The translations under genes and the position numbers were made by a program. The notes under the pieces were generated by a model. The model worked only from the letters and a program-made list of their open reading frames with translations, was not told the origin of the DNA and did not search any database. A DNA stretch of 59,771 nt from an uncultured archaeon (GTDB lineage: Archaea > EX4484-52 > LFW-46), in contig CABMCT010000029.1 in assembly GCA_902384675.1 (NCBI GenBank), positions 1 to 59,771 on the forward strand, in the 5' to 3' direction. Shown here one piece after another: positions 3,715 to 41,581 of the stretch; position 1 is the first letter of the stretch, and each line of letters opens with the position of its first letter.

Positions 3715-4230
3715 TTAAATGACCTTTTTTCCTCTTTCCTGCGATATAACGGTTAGTTTTGCCCCGCCGAATTTTTTTGTAAGCTCTTTTCCCTCGAAGA
3801 ATTCATGCAAAAAAACAGCAAGCGCAGCCACTTCAGAATGGGGTTGGCCGGTTACGGCAATGTTATAATCTGCAAGCTGATAGACTTCCCCGGGAACTTT
3901 TTCCCCGCCGACGATTATTAGCACGTCTTTTCCTTTTGATTTCTCTTTTATCTCGGAAATCTTGTCCTGTACCGGCATGCCGTACATCGTAAGATGAATT
4001 TTTATCCCTTTGAATTTCTCGATTATTTTTCTGGATTTTTCCTCGTATCTTATTTTGAATTTTCCACCCCATCTTTTTGCAACATCAGACACGGATTCAA
4101 GGACATTCTCGTCACGCTCCCCGGACAGTATTACTTCGTCTGCTCCAAGAGCACGCGCCGTAAGGCAGACATGGGTCGTAAGGCGCGCATCACGTACGCG
4201 GCGATGGGAAAGTCGGAGGATGGTGAGCAT
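3715..4230 (-). CDS. trm56: tRNA (cytidine-56 2'-O)-methyltransferase, SPOUT family
   Basis: [40 protein letters not shown] and [13 protein letters not shown] are archaeal aTrm56 motifs. Confidence 0.95.
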
Positions 4231-4333
4231 AGAATTTATTTAAAAAATGAGTTTAAAAAGAGCACACAAAACACATTATTTCTTTCAGTGATGATTTGTA
4301 ACCTATTTATGTATCGCACCCGAATATTATTGC

Positions 4334-6876
4334 ATGCATATCCAAAACGCCGACAGCAGTATGGCGGGGTATGCGTCAGAAGAGGTATCGTCTGTTCTAA
4401 GCCAGCTGGAATCCTCGCGTACTGGCTTGTCAACGCACGAGGCAAAAAGGCGGCTGCATGAATTCGGCCGCAATATTATTGCCGAAAAGGAAGGATTTAA
4501 TGTCCTCTTCAGATTCCTGTCGCATTTTACAAACCCTCTGATTCTGATTCTGCTGTTTGCATCAGCCATATCGGCATTTTTGGGAGAGCGCATGAATGCG
4601 GCTATAATAGGCATTATTGTTCTTTTCGGCGTGCTCCTGAATTTCTATCAGGAATATTCCGCAGATAAGGCGCTAAAAAAGCTAACCGATTCGGTTAAAA
4701 CTACGGTAGCGGTTATCCGGGACGGCAGGCAGGAGGAAATCAGGACCTCGGACATTGTTGCAGGCGACGTGATTTCCTTAAGTTCCGGGGATATGGTTCC
4801 TGCGGATGCCCGGATTATCGAGGCAAAAGATTTCTATGTGAACCAGTCGGCAATAACCGGCGAGGCATTCCCGTGCGAGAAAACAGAGCTTAGGATTAGC
4901 GATGCAAACGCATCTATCAGTTCCATGATTAATGTTGTGTTCTCGGGCACAAATGTCGTAAGCGGCTCGGCAATTGCAGTTGTTGTCAAGACCGGCAAAG
5001 ACACGGAGTTCGGAAAAATTTCCTCAAAGCTTGCAGAATCTCCGGCCAGAAGCGAATTTGAGGCAGGAATTAATAACTTCGGAATTTTCATTATGAAGCT
5101 GACATTTGTCCTTGTTATTTTTATCTTTCTTTTTAATTCGCTGGCAAAGCACAATTATTTTGAGTCTTTTATGTTCGCTATTGCAATTGCAGTCGGCCTG
5201 ACACCCGAACTTTTGCCTATGATCATGTCGACAACAATGATAGCGGGCTCAAAGAAAATGGAGAAAAAAGGGGTTATTGTAAAGCGGCTTTCTTCTATTC
5301 CTAATTTTGGCAGCATGAACATACTATGTACCGATAAAACAGGCACCCTGACAGAAAACAGGATTGAGTTGGTAAAATATACTGATTATGCAGGGAAAGA
5401 TAATGAACGTGTTCTGTTTCTTACGTATCTGAACAGCTCTTTTCAGACAGGTATCAGGAATCCGCTGGATGAGGCCGTCTTGAATTTCAGGAAAGTCGAT
5501 ACAAGGTCATACAAAAAATAGATGAAATTCCTTACGATTTCTTCAGAAAAAGAATGAGTGTTGTAGCAGGCAATTCAAAAGGATATATCATGATTACCAA
5601 GGGAGCGCCGGAGGAGATATTAAAATTATGCAATTATTATGTTGCCGGCTCAAAAAAGGCTAAACTCAATAAAAAAGTTGCGGCAAAAGCGTTGCAGGTC
5701 TACCACGATTTAAGCAACGACGGCTATCGTGTTCTTGCAGTTGCAGAAAAGAAAGTATCAAAGAAGCCCAATTACTCCAAAGACGATGAATCGGATATGA
5801 ACTTTGCGGGGTTTGTATCATTTCTTGACCCGCCAAAAAGAGATATCAAAAGCGTGATTAAAGAGCTGGAGGGGCTCGGCATAGAGGTCAAGGTTATTAC
5901 CGGGGATAATGAACTGGTAACGAAAAAAATATGCGACGAGGTGGGGCTCCGGGTAAATGGCGTTATGCTTGGAGAGCAGATTAGCCGCCTGACCGACAGT
6001 GCGCTAAGAGTCAAGGCGCAAAGCACTACGTTATTTGCCAAATGTTCTCCGACAGATAAAAGCAGGGTAATTTCGGCTCTCCGCTCAGGCGGCGATGTAG
6101 TCGGTTATCTGGGCGACGGTATCAATGACGCCCCGTCTCTTAAGGCTGCGGATGTCGGTATATCTGTCAATAATGCCGTGGATGTTGCAAAAGAGTCTGC
6201 GGATCTGGTCCTGACAAAGAAAAGCCTGCATGACTTAAAAGAAGGTATTATAGAGGGCAGGAAGACATTCGGGAACACGATGAAATATATAATGATGGCA
6301 TTGAGCTCTAATTTCGGAACCATGTTCAGTGCAACGGGAGCAGTGCTTTTTCTCCCGTACTTGCCTATGCTGCCGATACAAATACTCCTGAATAATCTTA
6401 TTTACGATGTCTCGCAGACAGCAATCCCCACGGACAATGTAGATGAGGAATGGACGCAAAAACCGAAGCGCTGGAACATGGATTTTGTCAAAAAGTTCAT
6501 GTATGTGTTCGGCCCGCTGAGTTCTGTGTTTGACTTTATCACATTCTTTATATTGTTTTTAGTTATCAGGGCATCCGCCCCGGTTTTCCAGACAGGTTGG
6601 TTCATAGAATCCCTTGCAACACAAACGCTTGTGATACATATAATCAGGACAAAGGATACCCCGTTTATCAAAAGCACTTCAAGCAGATTATTGGTTTTGA
6701 GCAGCGTGATATGCCTGGCTCTTGGAGTAATATTGCCCTATACTTCACTGGGGAAAGTATTCGGGTTTGAGCCTTTGCCCGGGAATATTTTATTTATCCT
6801 GGCAATAATAGTCCTGGCTTATTTATCTGCTGTGGAGATTGTTAAGAAGTGGTTTTATACTAAATTCAATCTTTGA
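4334..6876 (+). pseudogene. mgtA: Mg2+-importing P-type ATPase split by a 1-nt frameshift at about 5513-5521 (track ORFs 4334-5521 and 5554-6876)
   Basis: TGE, PELLPMI and DKTGTLT lie in part 1; KGAPEE, TGDN, GDGIND and NNLIYDVSQ lie in part 2. Adding one A to the A6 run restores YKKIDEIPYDFFRKRMSVV. The span of 2543 nt equals 3n-1. Confidence 0.85.
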
Positions 6877-10667: not shown

Positions 10668-11702
10668 TTACTTCGCTTCCGCGTTGTTCGAAGCTTTTGA
10701 ACTTTCGCTCAAAACTCCACGCCCCCCGATTTCTGCCTTGAATGCCTCAACTCCGGTTGATTCTATGGCTTTTAGAACCTTGCCGGCATCCTTTTCTTTT
10801 GCCAGTGCAAACATGATGCCGCCCCATCCGGAGCCGGAAAGCTTTGCTCCAAGGGCTCCTGCTTTTCTTGCCTCCTCGATACAGTCGTCAAGCTTCGGGT
10901 GAGAGACGCCCAAAGAGGATAAAAGTTCCTGGTTTTTGTTCATCAGCTTTCCGAGTTTTGCTTCGTCATTTTTTGCAATGGCGGATTCTGCGGCTTTGCA
11001 AATCTCCTCCATTTCGTCGAAAATGCCGAAAACAAAGTCTTTTTTCCGCGCAATAAGGCTTGGCAAATGGTATTTGACAGAAAGCGAGGTCGGGGATGAA
11101 ATTCTTGTGTTGCCTACAACAATCGAGAATTTATGCGTGCCCAGCTGCTGCCAGTCCAGGGATGTTTTCCCTTCTGCCTCAATCTTCTGTATTCTGTTGA
11201 ACCCGCCAAGCGCGCTTGAAATAATCTCGGCGCCCGACGCCCTTCCGCCGTGCACTTTAACCTGCATGGGATAAATATAATCGAAATATTTCTCCGGAGG
11301 GATTTGCTTTCCTGCAAAAGAGCTTACCGCTTTAAAGGCTGCACAAAGCAATGCGGTTGAGCTGCTCATTCCTGAATTTACAGGGACCTTTGAAGATATT
11401 TTCAGCTCAAGACCTTTTTTTATTCCGAGTTTTGGTACAAGCATTTCAAGAAAATCAAATGTTGTAGAAAGTTCAGAGGCTTCAAATCGTTTGTTTACAA
11501 GGGTGTTGCCTTTAATTTCCGAGCTTCCTTTGCCGAAGCTGTCCGAGTCCACAAGAACTTTTGTGTCATTTCTCTCTTTTACCTCTACATAAGTCCTTCT
11601 GTCGACCGCTGCGCAGATTGCAGGCTTCCCATAAGCTGCGGCGTATTCCCCGAAGAAAAAAATGTTTCCCGGCGCAGATGCCTCAAAAACTCTCTGTTCC
11701 AT
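10668..11702 (-). CDS. mvk: Mevalonate kinase-like GHMP kinase with divergent catalytic motifs
   Basis: SAPGNIFFFGEYAAAYGKPAI, PVNSGMSSSTA, SGAE and AKLSGSGWGG; first gene of the MVA cluster. Confidence 0.72.
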   Translation of the reverse strand: MEQRVFEASAPGNIFFFGEYAAAYGKPAICAAVDRRTYVEVKERNDTKVLVDSDSFGKGSSEIKGNTLVNKRFEASELSTTFDFLEMLVPKLGIKKGLELKISSKVPVNSGMSSSTALLCAAFKAVSSFAGKQIPPEKYFDYIYPMQVKVHGGRASGAEIISSALGGFNRIQKIEAEGKTSLDWQQLGTHKFSIVVGNTRISSPTSLSVKYHLPSLIARKKDFVFGIFDEMEEICKAAESAIAKNDEAKLGKLMNKNQELLSSLGVSHPKLDDCIEEARKAGALGAKLSGSGWGGIMFALAKEKDAGKVLKAIESTGVEAFKAEIGGRGVLSESSKASNNAEAK

Positions 11703-17540: not shown

Positions 17541-18020
17541 ATGATTTTTGTTACTGTAGGAACTCATACGCAGGGGTTTGAGAGGCTCATTAAAGCAGTG
17601 GACGAGCTTGTTGGAGGAGGCAAAATAAAGGAAAAAGTAGTGATGCAGATAGGGAACACGAAGTACGAGCCGGAAAACTGCGAATACTTCCGCTTTGAGC
17701 GCTTTAAAAAAATCCTTGAATTGAATAAAAATGCACGAGTAATAATAACGCATGCGGGTGCGGGATGCGTCATAACCGCGCTGCAATTTAGAAAGCCGCT
17801 GGTTATTGTCCCAAGGTATAAAAAGTTCGGCGAGCATGTTAATGATCATCAGTGCGACCTTGCAGCGGCGCTTGAGCGGGAGAAGAAGGCAATCAATGTG
17901 AGCGATATAAGCGGCCTTGAAGCGGCGTTAAAAAACATTGGCAAACTGGCAAAAAAGAGAAAAAATGGCGCATTGGTAAGCAAATTAGCTGCATATTTAA
18001 ATCAACAGGCGGGTCTATGA
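17541..18020 (+). CDS. Alg13/PssE-like glycosyltransferase (GT28 C-terminal domain)
   Basis: [16 protein letters not shown] and IVPR...[14 protein letters not shown] site before ATG 17541. Confidence 0.9.
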
Positions 18021-19066
18021 AAGGCAAAAGCGCATTAATAACAGGGATAACAGGACAGGACGGCTCTTATCTGGCAGAACTTCTTTTAAGCAAAGGATAT
18101 ATCGTGCACGGAATAATCCGCAGGGCAAGCACATTCAATACCGCAAGGGTTGACCATATTTATTCGGACATCCATGACCCAAAAACGAGATTGTTTATGT
18201 ACTATGGCGACCTGTCCGATGCAGAGCAGATATCCAACATAATCTATAATGTAAAGCCGGACGAGGTTTATCATCTCGGTGCACAGAGCCACGTGCGCGT
18301 AAGCTTTGATATCCCCGAATATACAGGAAACATAACTGCTCTTGGAACAACGCGCATTCTTGAGGCAATGCGCAGGAGCGGCAACCACATAAAATTCTAC
18401 CAGGCATCGTCAAGCGAGATGTTCGGCGCAGCGCTTCCGCCGCAAAGCGAGACAACGCCCTTTATGCCGAGAAGCCCTTACGCGGCAGCAAAGGTTTATG
18501 CATACTGGATGGCGGTCAATTATCGCAACGGCTACAATATGTTTGCGTCAAACGGCATTCTTTTCAACCACGAAAGCCCCCGGCGCGGGGAGACATTTGT
18601 CACAAGAAAAATCACCCGTGCAATAGCCGCGATACTTACCAAAAAGCAAAATCAGCTGTACCTTGGAAATCTTGATGCAGAAAGGGACTGGGGATTTGCG
18701 CCAGAATATGTGGAAGGCATGTGGAAAATTCTGCAGGAAAAGTTGCCGGGAGATTATGTTCTCGGTACGGGAGAGACGCACAGCGTAAGGGAATTTGTTA
18801 ACGAGACGTTCAAATACGCCGGGCTGGATTCCGAAAAATACGTTGCAATAGACCCGAGATATTTCAGGCCCACAGAGGTTGAGAAATTGAGGGCGGCTCC
18901 GTCAAAGGCACGAAACCAGCTTGGCTGGACGCCGAAGATAACATTCAGAGACCTTGTCAAAATCATGGTCGATGCCGACATGCGTGCTGCAGGGCTGGCA
19001 CCGATCGGGGAAGGCGACGAAATTCTTGCCAAAAAATTCCCGCAAAGATGGTGGACAAAAGACTGA
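18017..19066 (+). CDS. gmd: GDP-mannose 4,6-dehydratase (intein-free copy)
   Basis: [36 protein letters not shown] and RDWG. Confidence 0.96.
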
Positions 19067-19093: not shown

Positions 19094-20056
19094 ATGTCAT
19101 TCTGGAAAGGCAAGCAGATTCTTGTAACCGGGGGCGCAGGGTTCCTGGGACATTTTGTTGTGGAGGAGCTTAAGCGCAAAGGTGCAAAGGATATATTCGT
19201 GCCCCGCAGCAAAGAATTTGATTTAAGAAAACGCGAAAATTGTGCAAAAGTTGTAAAGGGAATAGATATTGTTTTTCACCTTGCTGCTTCTGTCGGGGGA
19301 ATCGGGGCAAACATGAACAATCCGGGAAAATTCTTTTACGACAACGCAATCATGGGCATTCAATTAATGGAGGAAGCGCGGCTTGCCGGGGTGAAAAAAT
19401 TCGTAACAGTAGGTACTGTCTGCGCTTATCCAAAATTTACTCCTGTGCCGTTCAGGGAAGAGGATTTATGGAACGGCTATCCCGAGGAAACAAATGCACC
19501 GTACGGCATTGCCAAAAAAGCCCTTCTTGTAATGTCGCAGGGCTACAGGCAGCAGTATGGCTTTAACAGCATTTTCCTTCTTCCGACAAACATGTACGGC
19601 CCGCGGGATAATTTTAACGAGGACTCGTCCCATGTTATCCCCGCGCTCATAAAAAAATGCATTGATGCAATCCGGAATAATGAAAACGAAATCGTGGTGT
19701 GGGGTACAGGAAAACCCAGCAGGGATTTTCTTTATGTAAAGGACTGCGCAGAAGCCCTTGTTCTTGCCGCAGAAGTCTACAACAAGCCCGAGCCTATGAA
19801 TATAGGGACCGGTGTTGAAGTTTCTATAAAGGACCTTGTTTCGATTATAGCAAAGCACACCGGGTTTAAAGGAAAAATTATCTGGGATGCAACAAAACCC
19901 GACGGCCAGCCAAGAAGATGCCTTAACACTTCCAGGGCAAAAAAAGAGCTTGGATTTTTTACAAAGACTTCTTTTGAAGACGGTTTAAGGGAAACAATTG
20001 ACGGGTATATTCAATCTCGAATACAACATAATTCAAAAGAGAAATTGAATAGATAG
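19094..20056 (+). CDS. fcl: GDP-L-fucose synthase
   Basis: [36 protein letters not shown] and PDGQPRR; follows gmd. Confidence 0.93.
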
Positions 20057-26870: not shown

Positions 26871-27812
26871 TTATTTTCTCTTTCCCTTTTGTATCCATTC
26901 AATATATTCCTTTATTCCTGCTTCTATGGTGTATTTTGGCTCATATCCTAAAATGTGCCTTGCTTTTGATATGTCTGCAAGCGTATGGGCGACGTCACCG
27001 CTTTGGGAATTGACGTAGTTCAGATGTGCCTTCTTATCCAGGCATGCCTCTATAATCCTTATAATCTCTGATAAGGATACTCTCTGGCCCGAGCCTATAT
27101 TGAATATCTCTCCGCCAGATTTGCTGTTTGCCGAAAGAATAATTCCACGGACAGCATCTTTAACATAGGTAAAATCCCGTGTCTGCTGCCCGTTTCCATA
27201 AACGTCTATCGGCTCGCTGTTTAATATTTTATTGGCAAACTTGCATATCGCCTCATCAGGCCTTTGCCTCAGCCCGTAGACTGTAAAATATCTCAGGGCT
27301 ACAGTAGGCATGCCGTATGCCCTGTAGAAATTCATGCAATACTCTTCTGCTGCAAGTTTGCTGCATCCGTAAGGAGATATCGGGGCGCATTTTCGTTCCT
27401 CGTTTACCGGCAGCAGGTTTTCAGGCACGTTCCCATAAACAGAGGAGGAGGAGGCATAAACGAATTTCCTGATGTTTGAGGATAAGCATTTTTCCAGCAA
27501 TAAAAACGTGGCTGCCGCGTTCAGCTCAAAGTATTTTTTCGGGTTTTCAATTGAATATCTTACGCCGCCTATGCCCGCCTGGTGATATATTACATCAGCA
27601 TCCTTTATTATGTCCTTGTTTATTTTTCTTACATCCTGCTTTAAGAATTTGAAATTTTTGTATTTCTTTAATTCGGATAAATTCTTCTTCTTTATGCCTA
27701 CATCATAATAATCGTCAAAACAATCAATTCCAATCACCTGTTCGTTGTTTTTCAGCAGCTCCTCTGCCAGGTTGGAACCTATGAAACCGGCGCAGCCCGT
27801 CACGATTATCAT
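26871..27812 (-). CDS. NAD-dependent nucleotide-sugar epimerase (UDP-glucuronate 4-epimerase-like)
   Basis: GCAGFIG, ASSSSVYG, PYGCSK, LRYFTVYG.RQRPD and QTRDFTY. Confidence 0.88.
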   Translation of the reverse strand: MIIVTGCAGFIGSNLAEELLKNNEQVIGIDCFDDYYDVGIKKKNLSELKKYKNFKFLKQDVRKINKDIIKDADVIYHQAGIGGVRYSIENPKKYFELNAAATFLLLEKCLSSNIRKFVYASSSSVYGNVPENLLPVNEERKCAPISPYGCSKLAAEEYCMNFYRAYGMPTVALRYFTVYGLRQRPDEAICKFANKILNSEPIDVYGNGQQTRDFTYVKDAVRGIILSANSKSGGEIFNIGSGQRVSLSEIIRIIEACLDKKAHLNYVNSQSGDVAHTLADISKARHILGYEPKYTIEAGIKEYIEWIQKGKRK

Positions 27813-28798: not shown

Positions 28799-30658
28799 AT
28801 GTGTGGTATCTGCGGGTTTACTTTCGAGGACAAAACGCTTCTGAAGAACATGTGCAGGCTAATTGCCCACCGCGGGAATGATGCACGCGGGTTCTATTAT
28901 GATAAAAACATAAGCCTGGGGCACCAGAGACTGAGTATAATTGACCTTGAAGGCGGAAAGCAGCCAATATATAACGAGAATAAAGACATTTGCGTTGTTT
29001 ACAATGGCGAAATATACAATTTTGCCGAATTAAAGGAAGAGCTCCAAAATCTGGGGCACAAATTTTATACAAATACGGATACGGAAGTTATAGTTCACGC
29101 ATATGAGGAATGGGGCACTGATTGCGTCAGGAAGTTTAACGGCATGTATGCATTTGCGCTCTGGAATTCAAAGGATAAAGAGCTTTTCCTTGCGCGCGAC
29201 AGGCTCGGGATAAAGCCGCTTTATTACACAATCATAAACGGGAGCCTGGCATTTGCCTCCGAATCAAAAGCTTTGATGATCCTGCCGGGGTTTGACAAGA
29301 CCCTGAACAAAAATGCAATCGATATGTACCTGACATTCAGGGCAGTTCTTGGCCAGGAGTGTATGTTTTCTTCTGTCAAAAAGCTTCTTCCGGGGCATAC
29401 GCTTTTGTGGAAAAGCAAAAAAACCAGGATAGAAAAATACTGGGGTGTGGAGGAAAAATTCCTGGAGCCGACAGAAAAAGAAATTATCCAAAACCTCAGG
29501 AGCCTGCTTGAAGACTCCGTGAAACGGCATATGATTGCCGACGTTCCTGTCGGTGCGTTTTTATCGGGAGGCCTTGATTCTAGTGCGGTCGTTGCCCTGA
29601 TGAGCAAATACGGGACCGTGAAAACGTTTTCCGTCGGTTTTGGAGGCGAATTTGACGAGCTCAAATACGCAAAAACAGTGTCCGAGAAATTCCGGACAGA
29701 CCACCATGAAATATACGTAAAAGAGGATGCTCTTTCGCTTTTGCCAAAAATCGTATGGCATTTTGACGAGCCTGTCGCTGACCCTGCGGCAGTGCCGACA
29801 TATGTTTTGTCAAGGGAAACAAGGAAAAAATGCAAAGTGGTGCTCACAGGCGAAGGAGGGGATGAGATTTTCGCGGGGTATGAGCAGTACAAGTTCATGA
29901 CACTAAAGGAGCGGTTTAAGGGCGCCTCAAAAGCCGCAGGTTCGGTGATTGGTGCGGTTCCACCATCCCTGCTTTCATATGCATTTCCTTATGCGAGCCG
30001 GCTTGGAATGAAGGGAATAAGGAGAGCCAGGGGATTTTTAAGAGAGGATGGGTTCGAGAAAGCGTATATGGAAATAACTTCTGTTTTTAACGAGGATGAT
30101 TTGAATGCAATTTGCGGCAGCAGCGGGTATTCGCTTGAATTTCTTAAATCGGCAATGTCGCGATACAAGCACCCCCTGAACAAGATGCAGCTGTTTGAGC
30201 TTGAAAACATACTCCCTGATAACCTGCTTATGAAGGTTGACCGAATGACCATGGCGCACTCGCTTGAAGCACGCGTCCCGCTTCTTGACCACCGGATAGC
30301 AGAATATTCCTTTTCACTGCATCCATCCATAAGGTTCAGGAACTCGGAGCCAAAGTATCTGTTCAAGAAGTCTGTAAAAGATATCCTTCCAAAAGAAATA
30401 CTAAACAGGCGAAAGCAGCGATTTTTTGTCCCGATAGATGAGTGGCTCCAGAAACGCGAAGCAAAGAATTATATTGAAAATTTCTACTTATCCGGAGATA
30501 CGCACGCGGGCTTGAAAGTGAACCCGAAATACATACATAATATTTTCCAGAATTACGACAATTCAAAGTTGTTCTATGCCCGCCAGCTATGGAGCCTGCT
30601 GAATATGGCGATGTGGTATGAGACATTTGTAGATAAGGATGCGGGAAATGCTTTATAA
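28799..30658 (+). CDS. asnB: Asparagine-synthetase-like glutamine amidotransferase, probably acting on a sugar
   Basis: MCGICG, HRG.D, NGEIYN, LSGGLDSS, LTGEGGDE and DRMTMAHSLEARVP. Confidence 0.92.
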   Translation: MCGICGFTFEDKTLLKNMCRLIAHRGNDARGFYYDKNISLGHQRLSIIDLEGGKQPIYNENKDICVVYNGEIYNFAELKEELQNLGHKFYTNTDTEVIVHAYEEWGTDCVRKFNGMYAFALWNSKDKELFLARDRLGIKPLYYTIINGSLAFASESKALMILPGFDKTLNKNAIDMYLTFRAVLGQECMFSSVKKLLPGHTLLWKSKKTRIEKYWGVEEKFLEPTEKEIIQNLRSLLEDSVKRHMIADVPVGAFLSGGLDSSAVVALMSKYGTVKTFSVGFGGEFDELKYAKTVSEKFRTDHHEIYVKEDALSLLPKIVWHFDEPVADPAAVPTYVLSRETRKKCKVVLTGEGGDEIFAGYEQYKFMTLKERFKGASKAAGSVIGAVPPSLLSYAFPYASRLGMKGIRRARGFLREDGFEKAYMEITSVFNEDDLNAICGSSGYSLEFLKSAMSRYKHPLNKMQLFELENILPDNLLMKVDRMTMAHSLEARVPLLDHRIAEYSFSLHPSIRFRNSEPKYLFKKSVKDILPKEILNRRKQRFFVPIDEWLQKREAKNYIENFYLSGDTHAGLKVNPKYIHNIFQNYDNSKLFYARQLWSLLNMAMWYETFVDKDAGNAL

Positions 30659-30757: not shown

Positions 30758-32182
30758 ATGAAAATTTTACTGTTGAATCCGCCATATTTGCCGAGATTCT
30801 CCCGCCAGAGCAGGTCGCCGTGCGTCACAAAGAGCGGAACACTTTACATGCCCTACTTTCTATCGTATATGGTGGGCGTTCTTGAAAAAGAAGGCTTTGA
30901 TGTAACGCTCCTTGATGCGGTTGCAAAAAACATGTCGCGCGAGCAAACAGTAGAATTTGCAAAAAGCCAGAATCCTGATTTGGTTGTTATTGATACAAGC
31001 ACGCCAAGCATATTTAATGATGCGGCTGTTGCAACTGCAATAAAGGAAGCAGTCCCACATGCGCACATAAACCTTGTCGGTACGCATCCGACAGCATTGC
31101 CGCATGAAACTATCGCGCTTGGAAAAATCGATTCTGTATGTCGCGGAGAATATGATTACACTGTAAGAGACCTTGCGCATGCCATTGAGGCAGGAAAAAA
31201 ATTGGATACTGTTGCAGGCTTATCGTTTAAGGAAGGAAAAAAGATTATTGACAACAAGCCGCGCGCAAGAATAGAAAATCTTGACGAATTGCCTTTTGTT
31301 TCTCAAGTCTACAAAAAGCACCTGAATATCCGAGATTATTTTTATGCGTCACTTACTTTTCCACAAATTACCATACTTTCTGCAAGGGGATGCCCGTATA
31401 ACTGCAGTTTTTGCAATTCCCCCTTTAAAGCATCATATCGCCCGCGCTCAATAGAAAACGTTGTTGAGGAACTCGAATATATCCAAAAAGAAATGCCCGA
31501 AGTCAAGGAGATAATGTTTGAGGACGAAACATTCCCGGCTGTCAAAAAAAGAACACTGGAACTTTGCGAGCTGATGAAAAAGCGCGGCATAAAAATAAAA
31601 TGGTCATGCAACGCGCGCGTAAATACTGACATAGAAACACTTGATGCAATGAAATCCGCAGGCTGCCGGCTTATGTGTGTCGGATTCGAGAGCCCGAATG
31701 CAAGGGTGCTTGAGTCAATACATAAAAGAACAACACGAGATATGCAGCTTGAATTCATGCGAAATGCAAGAAATGCAGGCCTGCTTGTGAACGGCTGCTT
31801 TGTCCTGGGTCTTGACAGCGACACAAGGGAAAGCATAAAAGAGACTGTCGAATTTGCAAAAGAATTGAATCCAGACACTGCGCAATTCTATCCTTTGATG
31901 GTTTATCCGGGAACAGAGGATTACAAGCGGGCAAAAGAAAAGGGTTATTTGACAACGGATGATTATTCAAAGTGGCTGACTCCTGAAGGCTTGCATAATT
32001 GCGTTGTCGACAGGCCGGGTTTGAACGGAGCAGACCTTGTAAGGCTTTGCGATGAGGCGCGCAGGCAGTTTTATTTGAGGCCGAAATATATCGGCTCAAA
32101 GCTTGCGCAGGGAATAAAAAATCCTTCGGAAATGATGCGTATATTGAAAGCAGGCGCAACATTTTTCAGGCATTTAAAATGA
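30758..32182 (+). CDS. Cobalamin-binding radical SAM protein
   Basis: N-terminal B12-binding-like domain (LLNPP, LVVIDTST, VGTH.TALP), RGCPYNCSFC, FEDETF and VGFES. Confidence 0.9.
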   Translation: MKILLLNPPYLPRFSRQSRSPCVTKSGTLYMPYFLSYMVGVLEKEGFDVTLLDAVAKNMSREQTVEFAKSQNPDLVVIDTSTPSIFNDAAVATAIKEAVPHAHINLVGTHPTALPHETIALGKIDSVCRGEYDYTVRDLAHAIEAGKKLDTVAGLSFKEGKKIIDNKPRARIENLDELPFVSQVYKKHLNIRDYFYASLTFPQITILSARGCPYNCSFCNSPFKASYRPRSIENVVEELEYIQKEMPEVKEIMFEDETFPAVKKRTLELCELMKKRGIKIKWSCNARVNTDIETLDAMKSAGCRLMCVGFESPNARVLESIHKRTTRDMQLEFMRNARNAGLLVNGCFVLGLDSDTRESIKETVEFAKELNPDTAQFYPLMVYPGTEDYKRAKEKGYLTTDDYSKWLTPEGLHNCVVDRPGLNGADLVRLCDEARRQFYLRPKYIGSKLAQGIKNPSEMMRILKAGATFFRHLK

Positions 32183-32199
32183 TGTTTAACGTGAGGAAG

Positions 32200-32487
32200 G
32201 GCATGGGTTCCAACTCATTGCATAATGTTAATCCTTTCGCTTGCGTTCTAGGCTTTTCAGCCCCCAAGCAATTGGCGAATTGTTGAAAATCCTCAAAAGC
32301 TTGCCATTTCGAACCTTGTGTTCGAAAGCTTGAAAATCTCTGAGATTTTCATGACGCAAGTGGCATGATTTTTATCCAAGTAAAATCATGACACCTCCAG
32401 CTTTTCAAGCTGGAAGCCTTCGAGATTTATCGGGATGGCTTCGTGTCAAGCTTTTCAACCCAATAATAATTGTGAATGGTTAAAAAT
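32200..32487. repeat. Largest repeat array, with modules in both orientations
   Basis: Plus strand: AAAAGCTTGCCA (32295)...TGGCATGATTTTT (32373) enclosing AAAGCTTGAAAATC...GATTTTCATGA. Minus strand: AAAATCATGACAC (32382)...GTGTCAAGCTTTT (32455), plus reversed CCA...TGGG and AAAAGCCTAGA modules. Confidence 0.9.
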
Positions 32488-32502
32488 GGAGAATGATAAA
32501 AA

Positions 32503-33474
32503 ATGATTTCAGTTATAATTCCGGCATATAATTCTGAAAAAACAATAAGGGGCTGCCTCCAAGCCCTTCAGTCTCAAAGCATCAAGGATATCGAAGTCAT
32601 TGTTGTGGACGACGGCTCAAGTGACGATACAGCGTCGATTGTCAAATCGTTCAAAAATGTAAAATTTTTCAAAAGACAGCACAAAGGCCCTGCATCGGAG
32701 CGGAATTTTGGCGCTAAAATGGCCAAGGGAGAAATACTTCTTTTTACGGATTCCGATTGCGAGCCGGACAAAAACTGGGTTTCTGAAATGGTTGCCCCGT
32801 TTAAGAGTGATAAGTCGGTTGTCGGCGTTTCAGGGACATACAGGACGCGCCAGAAAGAGCTGATTGCAAGATTCGCGCAGTACGAAATCGAGGAGCGGCA
32901 CGAGAAAATGGCAAAGGCGGGTTCCATTGATTTCATCGGGACGTTTTCGGCAGGATACAGGAAAGAAATATTTGACAAATTCGGCGGGTTTGACGAATCA
33001 TTTTCAACATCTGCAGGCGAGGACCCTGAGCTATCATTCAGAATCGCAGAAGCAGGTTATAAAATGGTCTTTGCGCCGAAAGCGTTTGTTTATCATACGC
33101 ATCCGAATACACTCCGGAAATATTTGAAGCAGAAATACAGGAATGCTTTTTGGAGGGTTGCTGTCTATGCAAAGAGAAAAAAGACTTTCAGGAAAGGGCA
33201 TTCTTATACACCGACAAGCGCGTTAATAGAAGCAATATGTGTCGCTGGATTTTTAATATCTTTGTTTTTGTATTTGATCTACCCGACCGCAGGATATAAA
33301 GCCATAACGCGAGGATTTTTGTTATTCACTTTCCTTCCATCGGCATTGCTTACATATCATATAGCTGAAAAAGATATCGCTGTTGGGATGGCTTCACCAT
33401 TCATAATAATTCTTCGCGCGTTTGTAACTGCGTTTGGAATTACGCGCGGCTTTCTTAAGAGGTACGTCGTATGA
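32503..33474 (+). CDS. GT2 glycosyltransferase with C-terminal TMs
   Basis: SVIIPAYN, VDDGSSD, FTDSDC and AGEDPEL. Confidence 0.9.
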   Translation: MISVIIPAYNSEKTIRGCLQALQSQSIKDIEVIVVDDGSSDDTASIVKSFKNVKFFKRQHKGPASERNFGAKMAKGEILLFTDSDCEPDKNWVSEMVAPFKSDKSVVGVSGTYRTRQKELIARFAQYEIEERHEKMAKAGSIDFIGTFSAGYRKEIFDKFGGFDESFSTSAGEDPELSFRIAEAGYKMVFAPKAFVYHTHPNTLRKYLKQKYRNAFWRVAVYAKRKKTFRKGHSYTPTSALIEAICVAGFLISLFLYLIYPTAGYKAITRGFLLFTFLPSALLTYHIAEKDIAVGMASPFIIILRAFVTAFGITRGFLKRYVV

Positions 33475-34610
33475 AAGTCACTTCGCAAGACCAAAAGCAT
33501 CCAGGCAGAAAACTCAAAGTTCTTCATGTCACAAATCACTTCTATCCATGCATCGGGGGAATCGAGACATACATTTTAAACCTGTCAAAAGGCCTGATAA
33601 AGCAGGGGCACACAAGTGATGTCTTATGCCTTAATACGTGCTCGAAAAGCAGGGAAAAGCTGCCAGCATCCGGGAATTACTGCGGGATTAATATTTATCG
33701 CGTTCCATATACGGATTTTAAGTACTACAAAGTCACGGGTATGATAGGGAAATACCTGAAGTCTTATGACATCATACACATACATGGGCTTGGGTTTTTT
33801 GCAGATTATCTTTCGATTACAAAGATGCTGCACAAAAAGCCCATGATTCTTTCGACATACGGCGGTATGTTCCATACGCAGCGCCTGATATCATTGAAGA
33901 AGGCGTACTTCTTTGGCTGGTGCCGCGTTGTGGCAAGAAGCTTTTCCAAAATAATTGCAATCAGCCCGGAAGACGAGAAAGTGGCGCGCCAATTATCGGG
34001 AAACGTCCAGCTTGTTGAGGCAGGCATTGATTATGAGCGGTTTTCATCTGCGAAAAAGAAGCTGGACAAGAACCTGCTTCTTTACGTCGGCCGCATATCC
34101 AGGAACAAGCGGGTTGATAACCTCATCAGGACCGTTTCTTACCTGAAGAAAGACTTAAAAGATATTAAGCTTTATATTATCGGAGAGGATTGGGAAAACC
34201 TCAAAACAGGACTCCAAAAACTTGCCGTAGAGAGAGATGTTGAAAAAAATATTGTATTTACGGGAAAAGTTTCCGACGAAAAACTGCTTGAATATTTGTC
34301 ACGGGCAAACTTTTTTGTCTCTGCATCAGAATACGAAAGCTTTGGGCTGTCTGTTGTGGAGTCGATGGCCGCTGGGTGCATACCGATTCTGAATGATATC
34401 GGGATTTTCAGGAACCTGATTGCTGACGGGAAAGAAGGCTTTATTGTCGATTTTAACAATCCTGAATCTGCGGCAAAGAAAATAAGCGCGATTTTCGGGA
34501 AGAACATCGAGCCCATAAGGAAAAGAAGCAGGCTGTTTTCAAAAAAATACTCGTGGGATAAAAAAGTATTGCTTGTAGAAAAAATCTACAATGACTCGAT
34601 AGGAATATGA
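33471..34610 (+). CDS. GT4 glycosyltransferase
   Basis: FYPCIGGIE, YVGRISRNKR and ESFGLSVVESMA. Confidence 0.9.
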   Translation: MKVTSQDQKHPGRKLKVLHVTNHFYPCIGGIETYILNLSKGLIKQGHTSDVLCLNTCSKSREKLPASGNYCGINIYRVPYTDFKYYKVTGMIGKYLKSYDIIHIHGLGFFADYLSITKMLHKKPMILSTYGGMFHTQRLISLKKAYFFGWCRVVARSFSKIIAISPEDEKVARQLSGNVQLVEAGIDYERFSSAKKKLDKNLLLYVGRISRNKRVDNLIRTVSYLKKDLKDIKLYIIGEDWENLKTGLQKLAVERDVEKNIVFTGKVSDEKLLEYLSRANFFVSASEYESFGLSVVESMAAGCIPILNDIGIFRNLIADGKEGFIVDFNNPESAAKKISAIFGKNIEPIRKRSRLFSKKYSWDKKVLLVEKIYNDSIGI

Positions 34611-36559
34611 TGATTGATATGGGAAAAACTGCCCTCATAACAGGCATTAGCGGCCAGGACGGGTCTTACCTGGCAGAGCTTTTGCTCCAGAAAAAATACA
34701 CTGTATTTGGCACACTGAAGCAGGAATCAGACAAATCCAGAATAACCCCTCTTCTTGACAGGATTACTGTTATAGATGCAGACATGTCCCGCGAGGAGTC
34801 TCTTGCAAATGCAATAAAGAAATCAGGGGCGGAAGAGGTCTATAATTTTGCGGCGCATTCTTTTCCGCAGTCATCGTGGGGCAGCCCGGTTGCAGTGGCA
34901 GAAGTCACTGCTATGGGGGTTGTTCGCCTGCTTGAGGCGATAAGAAAAACAAACCCTGCTATAAGGTTTTACCAGGCATCCACAAGCGAATTGTTCGGCA
35001 AAGCAACTACCCCGGTTCAAAACGAGAACACCCCGTTCCATCCAAGAAATCCATACGGAGTTGCAAAATTGTACGGGTACTGGGCAACCGTAAATTATCG
35101 CGAGCAGTATCATCTTCATGCATCAAACGGGATTGCATTCAACCACGAATCGCCCCAGCGCGGGCTCGAATACGTGACGCGGAAAATCACGCGTGGCGTT
35201 GCGCTGATACATGCCGGGCTTTCAGGAGAAATTGAGCTGGGCAGCCTTGATGCAAGAAGGGACTGGGGATTTGCAGGCGATTATTGTGTTGATTTAGATA
35301 CAAGCATTCTAACCAATGAAGGTTTCAAATATTACGACGAGATTAAGACTGGAGACACAGTTTTAAATTATAATACTAAAACAAACTGCTTGGAGCAAGA
35401 TAAAGTTATAAAAAAAGTTTTAATAAAAAACAAAGATAAAATGTACACTTTTCAAGGCAGGGGGTTAAAGTTGCGATGCTCCGCTAATCACCGAATATAC
35501 TACCAGAGGAAGTCTAAATCAAGTAAAGGCGGTTGGAGTAATTGGAAAATTTGTGATGCTAAAGATTTTTATAGTATCATAAAAAATTTGAAATTAAGAA
35601 CTAAATATGAGTTTAGATTGCCTCATGTGCAGGGTTATAAGAATAGGGGTCTAGAAATAAAAGATGATTGGTTCAAATTGATTGGTTATCTATTAAGTGA
35701 GGGGGTGTTATACGATGGTAATAGGAGTTTCCGAATTTCAGTGTCACAATCTAAAATTATAAACAAAGACGTATATGAAGATATTAATCGCACTTTAAAA
35801 AATCTGGGTCTTGTTCACAGAGTTAGAGAAAGAAGTGATGGTGTCGTTGAATTTATTTTTAATACCGCGAGTTCAGAAAAAATAATATCTTATTTTGATA
35901 GTTTTGATATACACTTAATGCCGAAATGGATATATAAGGCAGGGGATGGACAGTTAAAGCTATTATTTAAGGCAATGATGGATGGAGATGGCTGCTGGGG
36001 TACGATGAGGTATGTTTCCAAAAGAAAAGACTTAATTTCAAGTTTTCAAACTATCGCTACTATTTTAGGATACCGAACTACAATCCATCAAAGAAAATCA
36101 GGCATATGGGAATGTACCTTGATTGCTTTGAGAAAAAAATATATGTACATAACAGACTGTACTGAAGAAGACCATAATGAAAATGTATGGTGTGTTACTA
36201 CAGAAAATGGGACAATAGTAACCAACAAAGATAATGGAATTGCAGTTAGCGGAAATTGCAAAGCAATGTGGCTGATGCTGCAGCAGAAAAATCCTGACGA
36301 TTACGTGATTGCAACAGGAGAGACGCATTCTGTAAAGGACGTTGTCCAAACTGCGTTTGAAGCCGCCGGAATAAAAGACTGGGAGAAATATGTAAAAATA
36401 GACAAATCCCTTCTAAGGCCTCCTGAAAAATATACCTTATGCGGCGACAGCTCGAAGGCAAGAAAAGTGCTTGACTGGAAGCCTGAAGTCTCATTCAAAG
36501 AACTGATTAAGATGATGGTCGAGGCGGATATAAAGCTGGTAGAGAGTAAAGGAAACTAA
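34607..36559 (+). CDS. gmd: GDP-mannose 4,6-dehydratase interrupted by an intein (326-aa extein)
   Basis: GISGQDGSYL, PRNPYGVAK and FNHESP, then DWGFAGDY|324-aa insert|CKAMWLMLQQ...DDYVIATG. Confidence 0.93.
   Translation: MMIDMGKTALITGISGQDGSYLAELLLQKKYTVFGTLKQESDKSRITPLLDRITVIDADMSREESLANAIKKSGAEEVYNFAAHSFPQSSWGSPVAVAEVTAMGVVRLLEAIRKTNPAIRFYQASTSELFGKATTPVQNENTPFHPRNPYGVAKLYGYWATVNYREQYHLHASNGIAFNHESPQRGLEYVTRKITRGVALIHAGLSGEIELGSLDARRDWGFAGDYCVDLDTSILTNEGFKYYDEIKTGDTVLNYNTKTNCLEQDKVIKKVLIKNKDKMYTFQGRGLKLRCSANHRIYYQRKSKSSKGGWSNWKICDAKDFYSIIKNLKLRTKYEFRLPHVQGYKNRGLEIKDDWFKLIGYLLSEGVLYDGNRSFRISVSQSKIINKDVYEDINRTLKNLGLVHRVRERSDGVVEFIFNTASSEKIISYFDSFDIHLMPKWIYKAGDGQLKLLFKAMMDGDGCWGTMRYVSKRKDLISSFQTIATILGYRTTIHQRKSGIWECTLIALRKKYMYITDCTEEDHNENVWCVTTENGTIVTNKDNGIAVSGNCKAMWLMLQQKNPDDYVIATGETHSVKDVVQTAFEAAGIKDWEKYVKIDKSLLRPPEKYTLCGDSSKARKVLDWKPEVSFKELIKMMVEADIKLVESKGN
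35285..36256 (+). mobile_element. Class 1 intein with LAGLIDADG homing endonuclease
   Basis: Starts CVDLDTSILT; block B CSANHRI; LIGYLLSEG and FKAMMDGDG motifs; VWCVTT...SGN|C end; much more AT-rich than the exteins. Confidence 0.93.
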
Positions 36560-39580: not shown

Positions 39581-39614
39581 AGCTTAAATAATTAACTAAG
39601 GCAATATTTCATGA
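39581..39614 (+). repeat. Degenerate repeat-family module
   Basis: AGCTT-AAATA...TATTT-CATGA. Confidence 0.55.
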
Positions 39615-39673
39615 ATGCTAAAGAACATACGGAATGTTCTTTAACCAGAAAACTCAAAAGACTTAGAGGGCTT

Positions 39674-41581
39674 ATGTGCGGCATAACAGGATTCGTTGGA
39701 TTTGAAGACAAGTCGCTTATTCATAAAATGACAGACATGATAGCCCACAGGGGACCTGACGACAGCGGCTATTTTATCGGCAAAAACATTTGTCTCGGGC
39801 ACAGGCGGCTGAGCATAATCGATGTAAGTGCTGGAAAGCAGCCCATGTACAACGAAGACGATTCCATATGCATTGTTTTTAACGGGGAGATTTACAATTA
39901 TTCCGCACTAAGTGAGGAGCTCAAAAGAAAAGGGCATAAGTTTCGCACAAATTCCGACACAGAAACAATTATCCACGCGTATGAGGAATACGGGGATAAT
40001 TGTGTTAAGCATCTGCGGGGAATGTTTGCATTTGCAATATGGGACAACAGCACCAGAAAGAAACTTTTTCTTGCCCGCGATAGGCTCGGAATAAAGCCGC
40101 TCTATTATGCGCTTATAAACGGCTCAATCGTATTTGCTTCAGAGATAAAAGCAATACTGTTGCATCCTGACATAAAGCGAAAGGTCGACAATGAAGCGCT
40201 TTACAGCTATCTGACATTCGGTTATGTGCCTGCGCCAAGGACTATGTTTTCGGGAATCTGCAAGTTACCCCCGGCAAGCACGCTTTCTTTCAAGGATGGC
40301 AGATACGAGATAAAACAATACTGGGATGTAACATTTAAAGAAACAGAGGGAAGTGAGGAGCGACAGCTCGGCAATTCAGGCTCGAGATGGAGCGACGATG
40401 AGGAGCACTATAAGGCAGAATTGCTTCGCATTCTTAAAGAATCAGTACGTTCGCATTTAATGAGCGAGGTGCCGCTTGGCGCATTTCTTTCAGGCGGGCT
40501 TGATTCAAGCACTGTCGTTGCTCTTATGAGCTCTGCGGCAGAGGAGCCTATCAAAACCATCTCAGCAGGCTTTGAAAGCGGAGGCTATTATGACGAGCTC
40601 AAATACGCACGGATAGTTGCAGAGCATTTCAATACAGACCATCACGAGGTTGTGCTTAAGGCGAATGACCTCAAAATTCTTCCAAAAATAGTATGGCACT
40701 TTGACGAGCCTGTACCGGACCCGTCTTCTGTTCCGGAATATCTGATATCGCAGAAAGCCAAAAAGTATGTGACAGTAGCCCTTGTCGGGGAGGGGTCTGA
40801 TGAACTGTTCATGGGATACAGGCAGTACAAGATTATGTCTATGGCATACGCTCCGGTAATCAGAAATATGCTTATGCATGCTCCGGTAGGCAAGGTTGCC
40901 TCGTTATTCGGCAGGGCACCTGTTCCCAGAATTGCAAAGCGATATATGGAAGTGGCAGCAGGCATTTCAAAATCCATAAACTCTCCCAAAGATTGCTACA
41001 TGGGGCTCGTTAGCTCTTTTAGCCCGGAGGAGAGAAGCAGCATACTGGCTAATCCCAAAAGCGGATTTAGCGAATCGATACTTGGAGGATACTTTGCAGG
41101 AAATGGCACAATATTTGATAAGATGAGTAAATTCGAGCTGTCTGTTCCTCTTGCAGATATGCTTCTTATGAATGTCGATAAAATGACAATGGCAAATGCT
41201 ATAGAGGCGCGCGTGCCGTTCCTTGACCATAAGCTCGTGGAATTTTCTGCCAACATCCCGTGCTCATTAAAGTTATATAGGTTTAACGAAAAATATCTGC
41301 TTAAGAAGGCAATGTCAGGAATCCTGCCGAAAGAAATACTGAAGCGAAAGAAGCATCCTTTTGCAGTTCCGGTAAGAAACTGGCTTGAGGGCGAGTTAAA
41401 AGACCGGATGCTGGACGTATTATCCAGGGAGAGAATAGAAAAGCAGGGGTATTTCAAATACCCGTATATTAAAAAGCTGATTGACGGGAAGAAGTACAAT
41501 CAATTATGGCCGCTGACATTTTTTGAGATGTGGCACGAAATTTTTATTGAAGATTCTAAATTTAACAGAGGAACGATATGA
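39674..41581 (+). CDS. asnB: Asparagine-synthetase-like amidotransferase, copy 2
   Basis: Start reassigned to MCGITG (Cys must be N-terminal). HRGPD, NGEIYN, LSGGLDSS and GEGSDE. Confidence 0.92.
   Translation: MCGITGFVGFEDKSLIHKMTDMIAHRGPDDSGYFIGKNICLGHRRLSIIDVSAGKQPMYNEDDSICIVFNGEIYNYSALSEELKRKGHKFRTNSDTETIIHAYEEYGDNCVKHLRGMFAFAIWDNSTRKKLFLARDRLGIKPLYYALINGSIVFASEIKAILLHPDIKRKVDNEALYSYLTFGYVPAPRTMFSGICKLPPASTLSFKDGRYEIKQYWDVTFKETEGSEERQLGNSGSRWSDDEEHYKAELLRILKESVRSHLMSEVPLGAFLSGGLDSSTVVALMSSAAEEPIKTISAGFESGGYYDELKYARIVAEHFNTDHHEVVLKANDLKILPKIVWHFDEPVPDPSSVPEYLISQKAKKYVTVALVGEGSDELFMGYRQYKIMSMAYAPVIRNMLMHAPVGKVASLFGRAPVPRIAKRYMEVAAGISKSINSPKDCYMGLVSSFSPEERSSILANPKSGFSESILGGYFAGNGTIFDKMSKFELSVPLADMLLMNVDKMTMANAIEARVPFLDHKLVEFSANIPCSLKLYRFNEKYLLKKAMSGILPKEILKRKKHPFAVPVRNWLEGELKDRMLDVLSRERIEKQGYFKYPYIKKLIDGKKYNQLWPLTFFEMWHEIFIEDSKFNRGTI
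40354..40406 (+). repeat. 45-bp in-frame insertion flanked by an 8-bp direct repeat (TGAGGAGC)
   Basis: The repeat lies at 40354-40361 and 40399-40406. Removing 15 aa makes the segment the same length as in asnB copy 1. Confidence 0.75.

Follow-up and report, generated by a model that had tools for sequence, protein, structure and literature searches.

A probable laterally acquired homing intein in a GDP-mannose 4,6-dehydratase gene of an uncultured archaeon

The 59,771-nucleotide (nt) contig CABMCT010000029.1 of an uncultured archaeon (assembly GCA_902384675.1; GTDB lineage Archaea; EX4484-52; LFW-46), referred to here over its full length as the window, carries a gene for GDP-mannose 4,6-dehydratase (Gmd) that is interrupted by an insert of 324 amino acids. 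This insert is very probably a true homing intein of a known type, which reached an uncommon host enzyme by lateral transfer. The case is of interest as a well-documented instance in which an intein has homed into a gene of metabolism rather than replication, and it allows an occupied allele, empty syntenic orthologues and a paralog in the same genome to be compared. A single intein allele has also passed between Bacteria, Archaea and large phages that occur in the same communities, of the ultra-small-cell, groundwater type.

Anatomy and family of the Gmd intein

The host open reading frame (ORF) lies at 34607-36559 (+), encodes 650 residues and is interrupted exactly in frame by the insert, which spans residues 227-550 (nt 35285-36256; 972 nt) and whose deletion leaves a colinear Gmd of 326 residues. 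The insert starts with CVDLDT and finishes with AVSGN, after which the host protein resumes with CKAMWLMLQQ, and the insertion point falls within the conserved Gmd motif RDWGxAx[DE]Y↓VxxMW (↓ marks an insertion point or splice junction here and below). At the nucleotide level the junctions read TGT (Cys1) at the start, AGC GGA AAT (Ser-Gly-Asn) at the end and TGC (Cys+1) immediately afterwards. The start of the N-extein overlaps the upstream family 4 glycosyltransferase (GT4) gene by ATGA, and the Gmd catalytic motifs GISGQDG, STSE and YGVAK are readable in the exteins. The parts of the gene, all on the + strand, are listed below.

34607..35284 (+): N-extein, 226 residues, with the GxxGxxG Rossmann, TSE and YxxxK motifs and the C-terminal end ...RRDWGFAGDY
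35285..36256 (+): intein, 324 residues; HINT domain at residues ~1-112 and 289-324, nested LAGLIDADG endonuclease at ~113-288
35285..35287 (+): Cys1 (TGT), predicted N-terminal splicing nucleophile; Cys in 53/53 Gmd-family and 161/161 wider-clade inteins (samples described below)
35480..35491 (+): block B, S-A-N-H, with Ser66 at B:7, His69 at B:10 and Ile71 at B:12
35666..35719 (+): first LAGLIDADG motif, DWFKLIGYLLSEGVLYDG (KLIGYLLSEG), with Glu139 at 35699-35701; model helix 127-139
35957..36004 (+): second LAGLIDADG motif, KLLFKAMMDGDGCWGT (AMMDGDG), with Asp235 at 35987-35989; model helix 221-235
36188..36193 (+): block F, Trp302-Cys303 (F:3-F:4; an aromatic residue followed by Asp in standard class 1 inteins)
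36248..36256 (+): end of block G, Ser322-Gly323-Asn324, with a penultimate Gly instead of His; Asn is the predicted cyclising residue
36257..36259 (+): +1 Cys codon TGC, predicted C-extein nucleophile; GTG (Val) at empty sites
36257..36559 (+): C-extein, 100 residues plus stop, CKAMWLMLQQ..., with 82% nt identity to positions 10670-10960 of contig L049 and containing the second Pfam/TIGR stretch

The register of block B was set by a HMMER alignment to the gp41-1 intein (CSANH against CSEEH; gp41-1 numbering from PMC7664689), the N-terminal splicing region aligning with both the AceL NrdHF-1 and the gp41-1 inteins, and the assignment and register of block F were taken from residue pattern and strand position. 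An initial annotation of this DNA had described a 324-residue intein with Cys1, an SGN↓C junction, no penultimate His and both LAGLIDADG acidic residues retained; direct inspection of the residues bears out each point, with Glu139 and Asp235 both present.

Profile and structural comparisons agree with this anatomy. The precursor matches the Pfam model GDP_Man_Dehyd (PF16363) at 1e-109 and TIGR01472 at 3e-104, in each case in two stretches, and because the match is split by the intein the TIGR01472 score of 348.8 bits stays under the cut-off of 415. Within the insert, LAGLIDADG_3 (PF14528) scores 27.6-27.8 bits against a Pfam cut-off of 22.5. An AlphaFold2 model of the insert, built from a 20-sequence alignment, has a mean predicted local distance difference test (pLDDT) score of 93.9, and its best Foldseek matches in the PDB are the TliVMA, PhoVMA, PI-SceI and PI-PfuI inteins (E 1e-14 to 1e-11; template modelling (TM) scores 0.67-0.75), while its central domain matches I-DmoI and I-Tsp061I with probability 1.0. 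Sequence and model together thus point to a genuine full-length intein, composed of a HINT domain and a nested two-motif LAGLIDADG endonuclease. It is predicted both to splice and to act as an endonuclease.

The insert belongs to a family that repeatedly occupies the same position in Gmd. A search restricted to the insert recovered homologous inteins (42-73% identity) in 43 other Gmd proteins, all at the identical DY↓C site, and these database proteins, together with 14 genome loci and 10 viral contigs, bring the occupancy of this site to more than 60 Gmd genes. Among species-representative genomes, the bacterial hosts are Omnitrophota, Patescibacteria, Saccharibacteria, Anaerolineae and Campylobacterota (Sulfurospirillum, Nautiliaceae), and the hosts among DPANN and other archaea are Woesearchaeota, Micrarchaeota and a metagenome-assembled genome (MAG) of Methanosarcinales. 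Of the 10 IMG/VR contigs that carry the intein in gmd, several are complete genomes (86-200 kb, terminal repeats) and one is a giant-virus MAG. A gmd-intein contig of 388 kb (L023; IMGVR_UViG_3300024262_006558) is classed as a provirus by IMG/VR and may, for that reason, be largely cellular DNA.

Residue counts over 53 non-redundant members of this Gmd family show a strict pattern, in which Cys1, His at B:10, Trp-Cys at F:3-F:4 and the final Gly and Asn are each found in 53/53, Ser or Thr at B:7 is likewise universal, and Cys+1 is invariant. The Glu of the first endonuclease motif is kept in 53/53 and the Asp of the second in 52/53, the position of Ser322 in block G is Ser in 50/53, and B:12 is Ile (38), Met (5), Leu (5) or Val (5) and never Trp. 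Where a column is conserved in at least 85% of the family, the intein of the window deviates just twice, both times at non-catalytic positions.

On sequence grounds, the Gmd intein is part of a large clade defined by Cys1, [S/T]xxH, Trp/Tyr-Cys at F:3-F:4 and a Gly-Asn C-terminus. A profile search of 1.84 billion cluster representatives returned 283 matches at E<=1e-30 and 6,356 at E<=1e-10, with family B DNA polymerase, NrdD and helicase-like proteins among the hosts. In 161 full-span intein domains taken from the best 150 proteins, Cys1 is universal; Cys occupies F:4 in 147 of them, with Asp there in 8 and Ser in 6; 157 have a penultimate Gly and 143 an aliphatic residue at B:12; and block G position 5, occupied here by Ser322, is Thr in 61 and Ser in 42. 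The missing penultimate His and block F Asp are therefore common across the clade and not peculiar to the copy in the window. The clade resides mostly in proteins of replication and nucleotide metabolism, with one branch having colonised Gmd across bacteria, archaea and large phages.

The closest experimental reference within this clade is the RDF intein of mycobacteriophage Bethlehem (gp52 phosphoesterase, AY500153; PMC5050341), which resembles the Gmd intein in size (~317-324 residues), in its nested LAGLIDADG endonuclease, and in Cys1, the block B pattern [S/T]xNH with an aliphatic residue at B:12, the Trp-Cys pair of F:3-F:4 and the Gly-Asn terminus (CSW...TANHRVV...VWC...TGN↓S). It differs in its host, a phage recombination directionality factor (RDF)/phosphoesterase, in its insertion site and in having Ser rather than Cys at +1. 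The clade hidden Markov model (HMM) recovers it end to end at 161.7 bits (E 1.5e-51), against 55 bits with the HMM of the Gmd family; a tblastn search of 50,697 phage genomes with the Gmd intein gave only matches of 22-24% identity in helicase and hypothetical genes and missed Bethlehem. This intein splices completely with its native penultimate Gly, is slowed by the G316H substitution, and carries an endonuclease that is toxic in Escherichia coli (PMC5050341). The Gly-Asn/Trp-Cys type is, therefore, experimentally competent for splicing.

The clade has further members. An order-level relative (L033; G017:C49:6031-6459) has a 143-residue mini-intein (CISQDT...IIWCPNTKNETVIARRNGKVFITGN↓T) in an 815-residue ORF, so that the Trp-Cys/Gly-Asn type also occurs without an endonuclease. 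Two IMG/VR viral contigs, L029 (~4001-5014) and L030 (~1075-2088), carry a clade intein of 24% identity (CYDEDT...GRIAIQGN↓T) that interrupts a 1028-residue protein of unknown identity.

Probable lateral gain of the intein in the archaeal lineage

One line of evidence for lateral gain is the empty site in closely related, syntenic genes. The closest intein-free orthologue of the spliced extein (P0053, on contig L049) is 85% identical in amino acids and 82.6% in nucleotides, and three more (P0054-P0056) are 69-77% identical to the extein. The gene order radical SAM, family 2 glycosyltransferase (GT2), GT4 and gmd is common to the window, L049 and L050, and L050 also shares the downstream DegT and Gfo/Idh/MocA genes. 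Positions 6420-10665 of L049 align with 30770-35283 of the window at 80-83% nt identity and positions 10670-10960 with 36260-36550 at 82%, and over ~4.5 kb of colinearity with L049 and L050 the alignment breaks exactly at 35283/36260, leaving a clean insertion of 972 nt plus the adjacent codon. The intein itself is absent from all 60 related genomes searched, a set in which one genome belongs to the same genus and 40 belong to the same order.

The histories of intein and host disagree. In a tree of 64 exteins, the window protein falls in a clade of 100% support with four intein-free orthologues, and its terminal branch (0.098) is as long as that of its sister (0.097). In the intein tree, it is sister (98%) to the intein of an Omnitrophota bacterium (76% amino acid and 75% nt identity) whose extein is placed elsewhere in the extein tree, within an intein clade of 19 members that mixes bacterial and archaeal hosts and consists entirely of cellular MAGs. 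Transfer of a whole gmd gene with its intein was considered and rejected, as the exteins and 4.5 kb of flanking DNA are orthologous to, and syntenic with, those of intein-free relatives. Together, the trees and the syntenic empty sites make whole-gene transfer and vertical inheritance unlikely and homing into a resident gene the best account. With the empty sites, the tree conflict and an un-ameliorated G+C content at third codon positions (GC3), a lateral gain after the split from the closest sequenced relatives is well supported by the sequence comparisons. The lateral invasion proposed in the initial annotation is upheld by the same three lines of evidence. The comparison of intein and extein phylogenies that it called for was made and yields conflicting trees, which speaks against vertical inheritance; its reservation that the site might turn out to be both widely catalogued and vertically inherited holds in its first half, given the occupancy seen in public data, and fails in its second.

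The +1 residue gives a footprint of the element. Empty sites in L049 and L050 read GAT TAC↓GTG AAG/AAA and the occupied site reads GAT TAT↓intein↓TGC AAA, with the +1 codon differing at 3/3 bases. All occupied Gmd sites have Cys at +1, and among 119 intein-free homologues this position is Val in 116, Thr in 2, Ile in 1 and Cys in none. Because Cys+1 is confined to occupied sites and Val stands at the empty orthologous site, the Cys codon comes with the intein, and the Val of an empty site is no barrier to invasion. Two intein-free proteins, P0059 and P0097, have Thr at the insertion position (DY-T-EAMW), which could itself act as a +1 nucleophile.

This bears directly on a second gmd gene of the window, which, with its neighbour, is laid out as follows.

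18017..19066 (+): second gmd, intein-free, 349 residues; Val at the insertion position; TIGR01472 499.8 bits, above the cut-off
19094..20056 (after the second gmd): GDP-L-fucose-synthase-like gene; Fcl model match 1e-86, below the equivalog cut-off

The initial annotation had correctly read Val at the homologous position of this second copy but took it to mark an intein-proof paralog. That view is not supported, since Val is the normal state of an empty site, the orthologous counterpart of the invaded site being no exception, and since the exteins of P0013, P0015 and L009, with which the second gmd groups at 77% identity, carry the same intein. Around the site, the second gmd differs from the empty site of L049 at 8/24 bases (hand count). 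Its pairing with an fcl-like gene suggests an independent route to GDP-fucose.

Base composition sets the intein apart from its host. Its G+C content is 0.325, compared with 0.494 for the N-extein and 0.436 for the C-extein, and its GC3 of 0.287 (exteins 0.49; genome mean 0.476) places it within the bottom ~1% when 507 long ORFs of the genome are compared. Earlier hand counts of 12/60 G+C at 35401-35460 and 31/60 at 35101-35160 proved exact, and the break is not due to chance, as only 0.4% of 972-nt windows of the genome are equally AT-rich. The intein has a lower G+C than its exteins in all 22 hosts examined (mean difference -0.08), a gap that is partly due to amino-acid composition, so low G+C alone provides no date. 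Intein GC3 correlates with that of the host (r = 0.84), which indicates that amelioration does occur, and the GC3 gap of -0.21 in the window is among the largest of the family, similar to that of the Woesearchaeota and Methanosarcinales copies. The composition fits a comparatively young import of low G+C, without proving it.

Divergence places limits on that age. The extein and its L049 orthologue differ by a synonymous divergence (dS) of ~0.78 with a dN/dS of ~0.11, and this low ratio, together with the equal terminal branches, implies that the host gmd is still constrained. Between the intein and its nearest relative, the proportions of nonsynonymous and synonymous differences (pN and pS) are 0.14 and 0.71, and those of the endonuclease domain are 0.15 and 0.69. 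Purifying selection on the endonuclease domain and the spread of the intein across phyla would be an indirect sign of the predicted site-specific cleavage. The description of the invasion as recent can be kept only relative to the split from L049, as the nearest known intein is already synonymously saturated.

Proposed mechanism and alternative explanations

The most likely route begins with cleavage of an empty gmd site by the endonuclease, after which repair would copy the intein-bearing allele and, in the same event, exchange the Val codon GTG for the Cys+1 codon TGC. Excision from the precursor would then follow the class 1 pathway, with an N-S acyl shift at Cys1, transesterification to Cys+1, cyclisation of Asn324 and an S-N shift, to give an active Gmd with a single Val-to-Cys scar. 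A selfish element is the best reading of the Gmd intein, and nothing points to a regulatory role.

Several observations weigh against this account and should be set beside it. For the insert, both the Pfam Intein_splicing model and the TIGR intein models (TIGR01445) stay under their cut-offs, and for this reason the identification rests on fold, family and anatomy. The F:4 residue is Cys and not the usual Asp, which makes a purely standard class 1 chemistry an assumption. The choice between gain here and loss in the relatives depends on parsimony and composition; with the nearest intein at 76% amino acid and 75% nt identity and its synonymous sites saturated, no donor has been identified; and when flank identity to intein-bearing alleles was set against that to empty alleles, no significant sign of co-conversion extended past the +1 codon. 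Two other searches were also uninformative: a genome-wide scan with PF14890 gave no match and missed the Gmd intein itself, and a PDB sequence search with the 49 C-terminal residues of the intein returned chance fibronectin and lectin matches only.

If the intein were instead old and vertically inherited in this Gmd lineage, the intein-free orthologues (P0053-P0056 and others) would have lost it by conversion from empty alleles. Such repeated loss is what the homing-cycle model predicts, the nearest intein, at saturated dS (>1.8), is older than the split between the host and L049 (dS 0.78), and the low G+C common to the family sets no date. Nevertheless, at least 2-4 independent losses would be needed in a 10-member and otherwise intein-free clade, none of the 119 intein-free homologues retains the Cys footprint, the large GC3 gap persists although amelioration is seen in hosts with matching GC3, and the sister intein belongs to a bacterium of another phylum; we consider such a history very unlikely. 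Delivery by a virus carrying an intein-bearing gmd, which the initial annotation had considered possible, has in its favour the 10 IMG/VR contigs with the same allele at the same site, including the complete genomes and the giant-virus MAG described above. All viral copies, however, fall in two distant intein clades (38-46% identity), whereas the clade of the window is solely cellular, and no viral genes adjoin the locus, whose flanks are syntenic host DNA, so that a viral carrier is an unlikely source for this archaeon. A search of the viral records for capsid proteins of nucleocytoplasmic large DNA viruses (NCLDV) gave no match, and neither did the controls.

Loss of splicing has also to be weighed, with this gmd copy dead or dying and tolerated through the second gmd. 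A functional paralog with an fcl-like partner does exist, the generic intein models score weakly, and the penultimate His and block F Asp are absent; yet all splicing residues that are invariant in the family are present, the catalytic motifs of the extein are intact and its evolution has been as slow as that of its intein-free sister, and the Bethlehem RDF intein splices with the same Gly-Asn and Trp-Cys features, which together make this reading highly improbable. A different question is whether Cys303 takes part in, or gates, the reaction, either as the second nucleophile of a class 1/class 3 hybrid or through a disulfide among Cys1, Cys303 and Cys+1 that would make Gmd maturation redox-dependent, which would correspond to the conditional splicing suggested in the initial annotation. 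The conservation of Cys at F:4 in the family (53/53) and in most of the clade, its resemblance, with His at B:10 and Ser/Thr at G:5, to the class 3 Cys-His-Thr triad (PMC2807308, PMC7664689), and the regulation of other inteins by disulfides of catalytic cysteines (PMC6195587) lend this idea some appeal. It sits poorly with the universal Cys1, as expected of the initiating nucleophile, with the presence of I/M/L/V at B:12 instead of a Trp that cannot be mutated without blocking class 3 splicing, and with the treatment of the tested clade member as class 1 by Kelley et al. (PMC5050341); nor does anything in the data indicate regulated splicing. Since F:4 alternates with Asp and Ser in the clade, as for an auxiliary role (PMC5222942), Cys303 is read here as an Asp-like auxiliary residue, and a direct or gating function is quite unlikely.

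The same idea may be extended to the whole Cys1/Trp-Cys/Gly-Asn clade, as hybrid class 1/class 3 splicing or as a switch-off by an active-site disulfide, and on that scale too we regard it as unlikely. Were it true, the maturation of one Gmd, and hence one branch of surface-glycan synthesis, would depend on redox state, and the clade concerned is large, with hundreds of clusters at 50% identity whose host proteins are polymerases, reductases, helicases and Gmd. Assignment to class 3 proper was rejected, given the absence of Trp at B:12 and the invariance of Cys1. Class 3 (WCT) inteins such as MP-Be DnaB and Msm DnaB-1 (PMC2807308, PMC5222942) share with the Gmd intein the F:4 Cys, His at B:10 and a hydroxyl residue at G:5, but in class 3 a nucleophile at position 1 is absent or dispensable, Trp at B:12 is needed and the +1 residue is usually Ser/Thr, whereas the Gmd intein has Cys1, an aliphatic B:12 and Cys+1.

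Related inteins and genomic surroundings

The structurally closest inteins, TliVMA and PhoVMA (7qsu, 7qst), PI-SceI (1vde) and PI-PfuI (1dq3), have the same two-domain fold with Cys at the N-terminus and Asn at the C-terminus, but are only 10-14% identical, have a penultimate His and reside in ATPase, polymerase or reductase hosts; the Gmd intein is smaller and has a Gly-Asn end. Within Gmd, a second insertion site, LFNHE↓[S/T]...HN↓SP(V/L)RG, is occupied in P0025, P0028, P0180 and L012 (~1800-2830 in L012), and some Gmd genes carry two inteins, one at the DY↓C site and one at the LFNHE↓SP(V/L)RG site. The inteins of this NHE↓SP(R/V)RG site (P0025, P0028, L012, P0180) likewise have Gmd as host, are full-length with an endonuclease and show a sporadic, strain-level distribution, but they lie ~40 residues upstream and form a different family (Ser/Thr1 ... 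His-Asn↓Ser). In a literature search for gmd inteins, the sole mention found was that of a gmd "type II intein" in Thermosynechococcus strains, in a paper that does not state the insertion site (PMC9403480). The inteins in UDP-glucose dehydrogenase of Euryarchaeota (Novikova et al. 2016, PMC4760082, Table 2) are comparable by host type alone, as archaeal sugar-nucleotide enzymes, and differ in enzyme family (COG1004) and in the inteins themselves.

Two practical consequences follow from these comparisons. The intein is a compact natural member (324 residues, with endonuclease) of the Gly-Asn/block-F-Cys clade in a host enzyme that is easily assayed. In annotation, genes of this kind are usually labelled just "GDP-mannose 4,6-dehydratase", the insert being missed by generic intein models.

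Within a large glycan-synthesis island, the gmd with the intein closes a unit of genes that share one strand, the preceding genes being as follows.

30758..32182 (+): B12-binding radical SAM protein (Pfam); colinear with L049 and L050 at 73-83% nt identity
32503..33474 (+): GT2 glycosyltransferase (Pfam); colinear with L049 and L050
33471..34610 (+): GT4 glycosyltransferase (Pfam); colinear with L049 and L050

The island also holds a third gene of the Gmd/epimerase family of short-chain dehydrogenases/reductases and two AsnB-type asparagine-synthase paralogs (26871-27812 (-), 28799-30658 (+) and 39611-41581 (+)), the two AsnB-type paralogs flanking the intein-bearing operon. The genome is an archaeal MAG of 1.2 Mb in 76 contigs; no 16S gene was found in it, and its archaeal identity was read from ribosomal protein S4e. 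Elsewhere in the genome, an ORF of 325 residues (G000:C55:6255-6746) matches LAGLIDADG_3 twice, with no HINT domain detected, and probably encodes a free-standing or intron-encoded homing endonuclease.

Finally, the host Gmd subclade (the window, at 34700-34740, residues ~35-45, and P0053-P0056) has G-T-L-K-Q/P-x-S in place of the dinucleotide-binding motif G-x-x-R-R-x-S, followed by a two-residue deletion. As judged from the altered motif, these enzymes may differ in NADP(H) binding or in cofactor preference.

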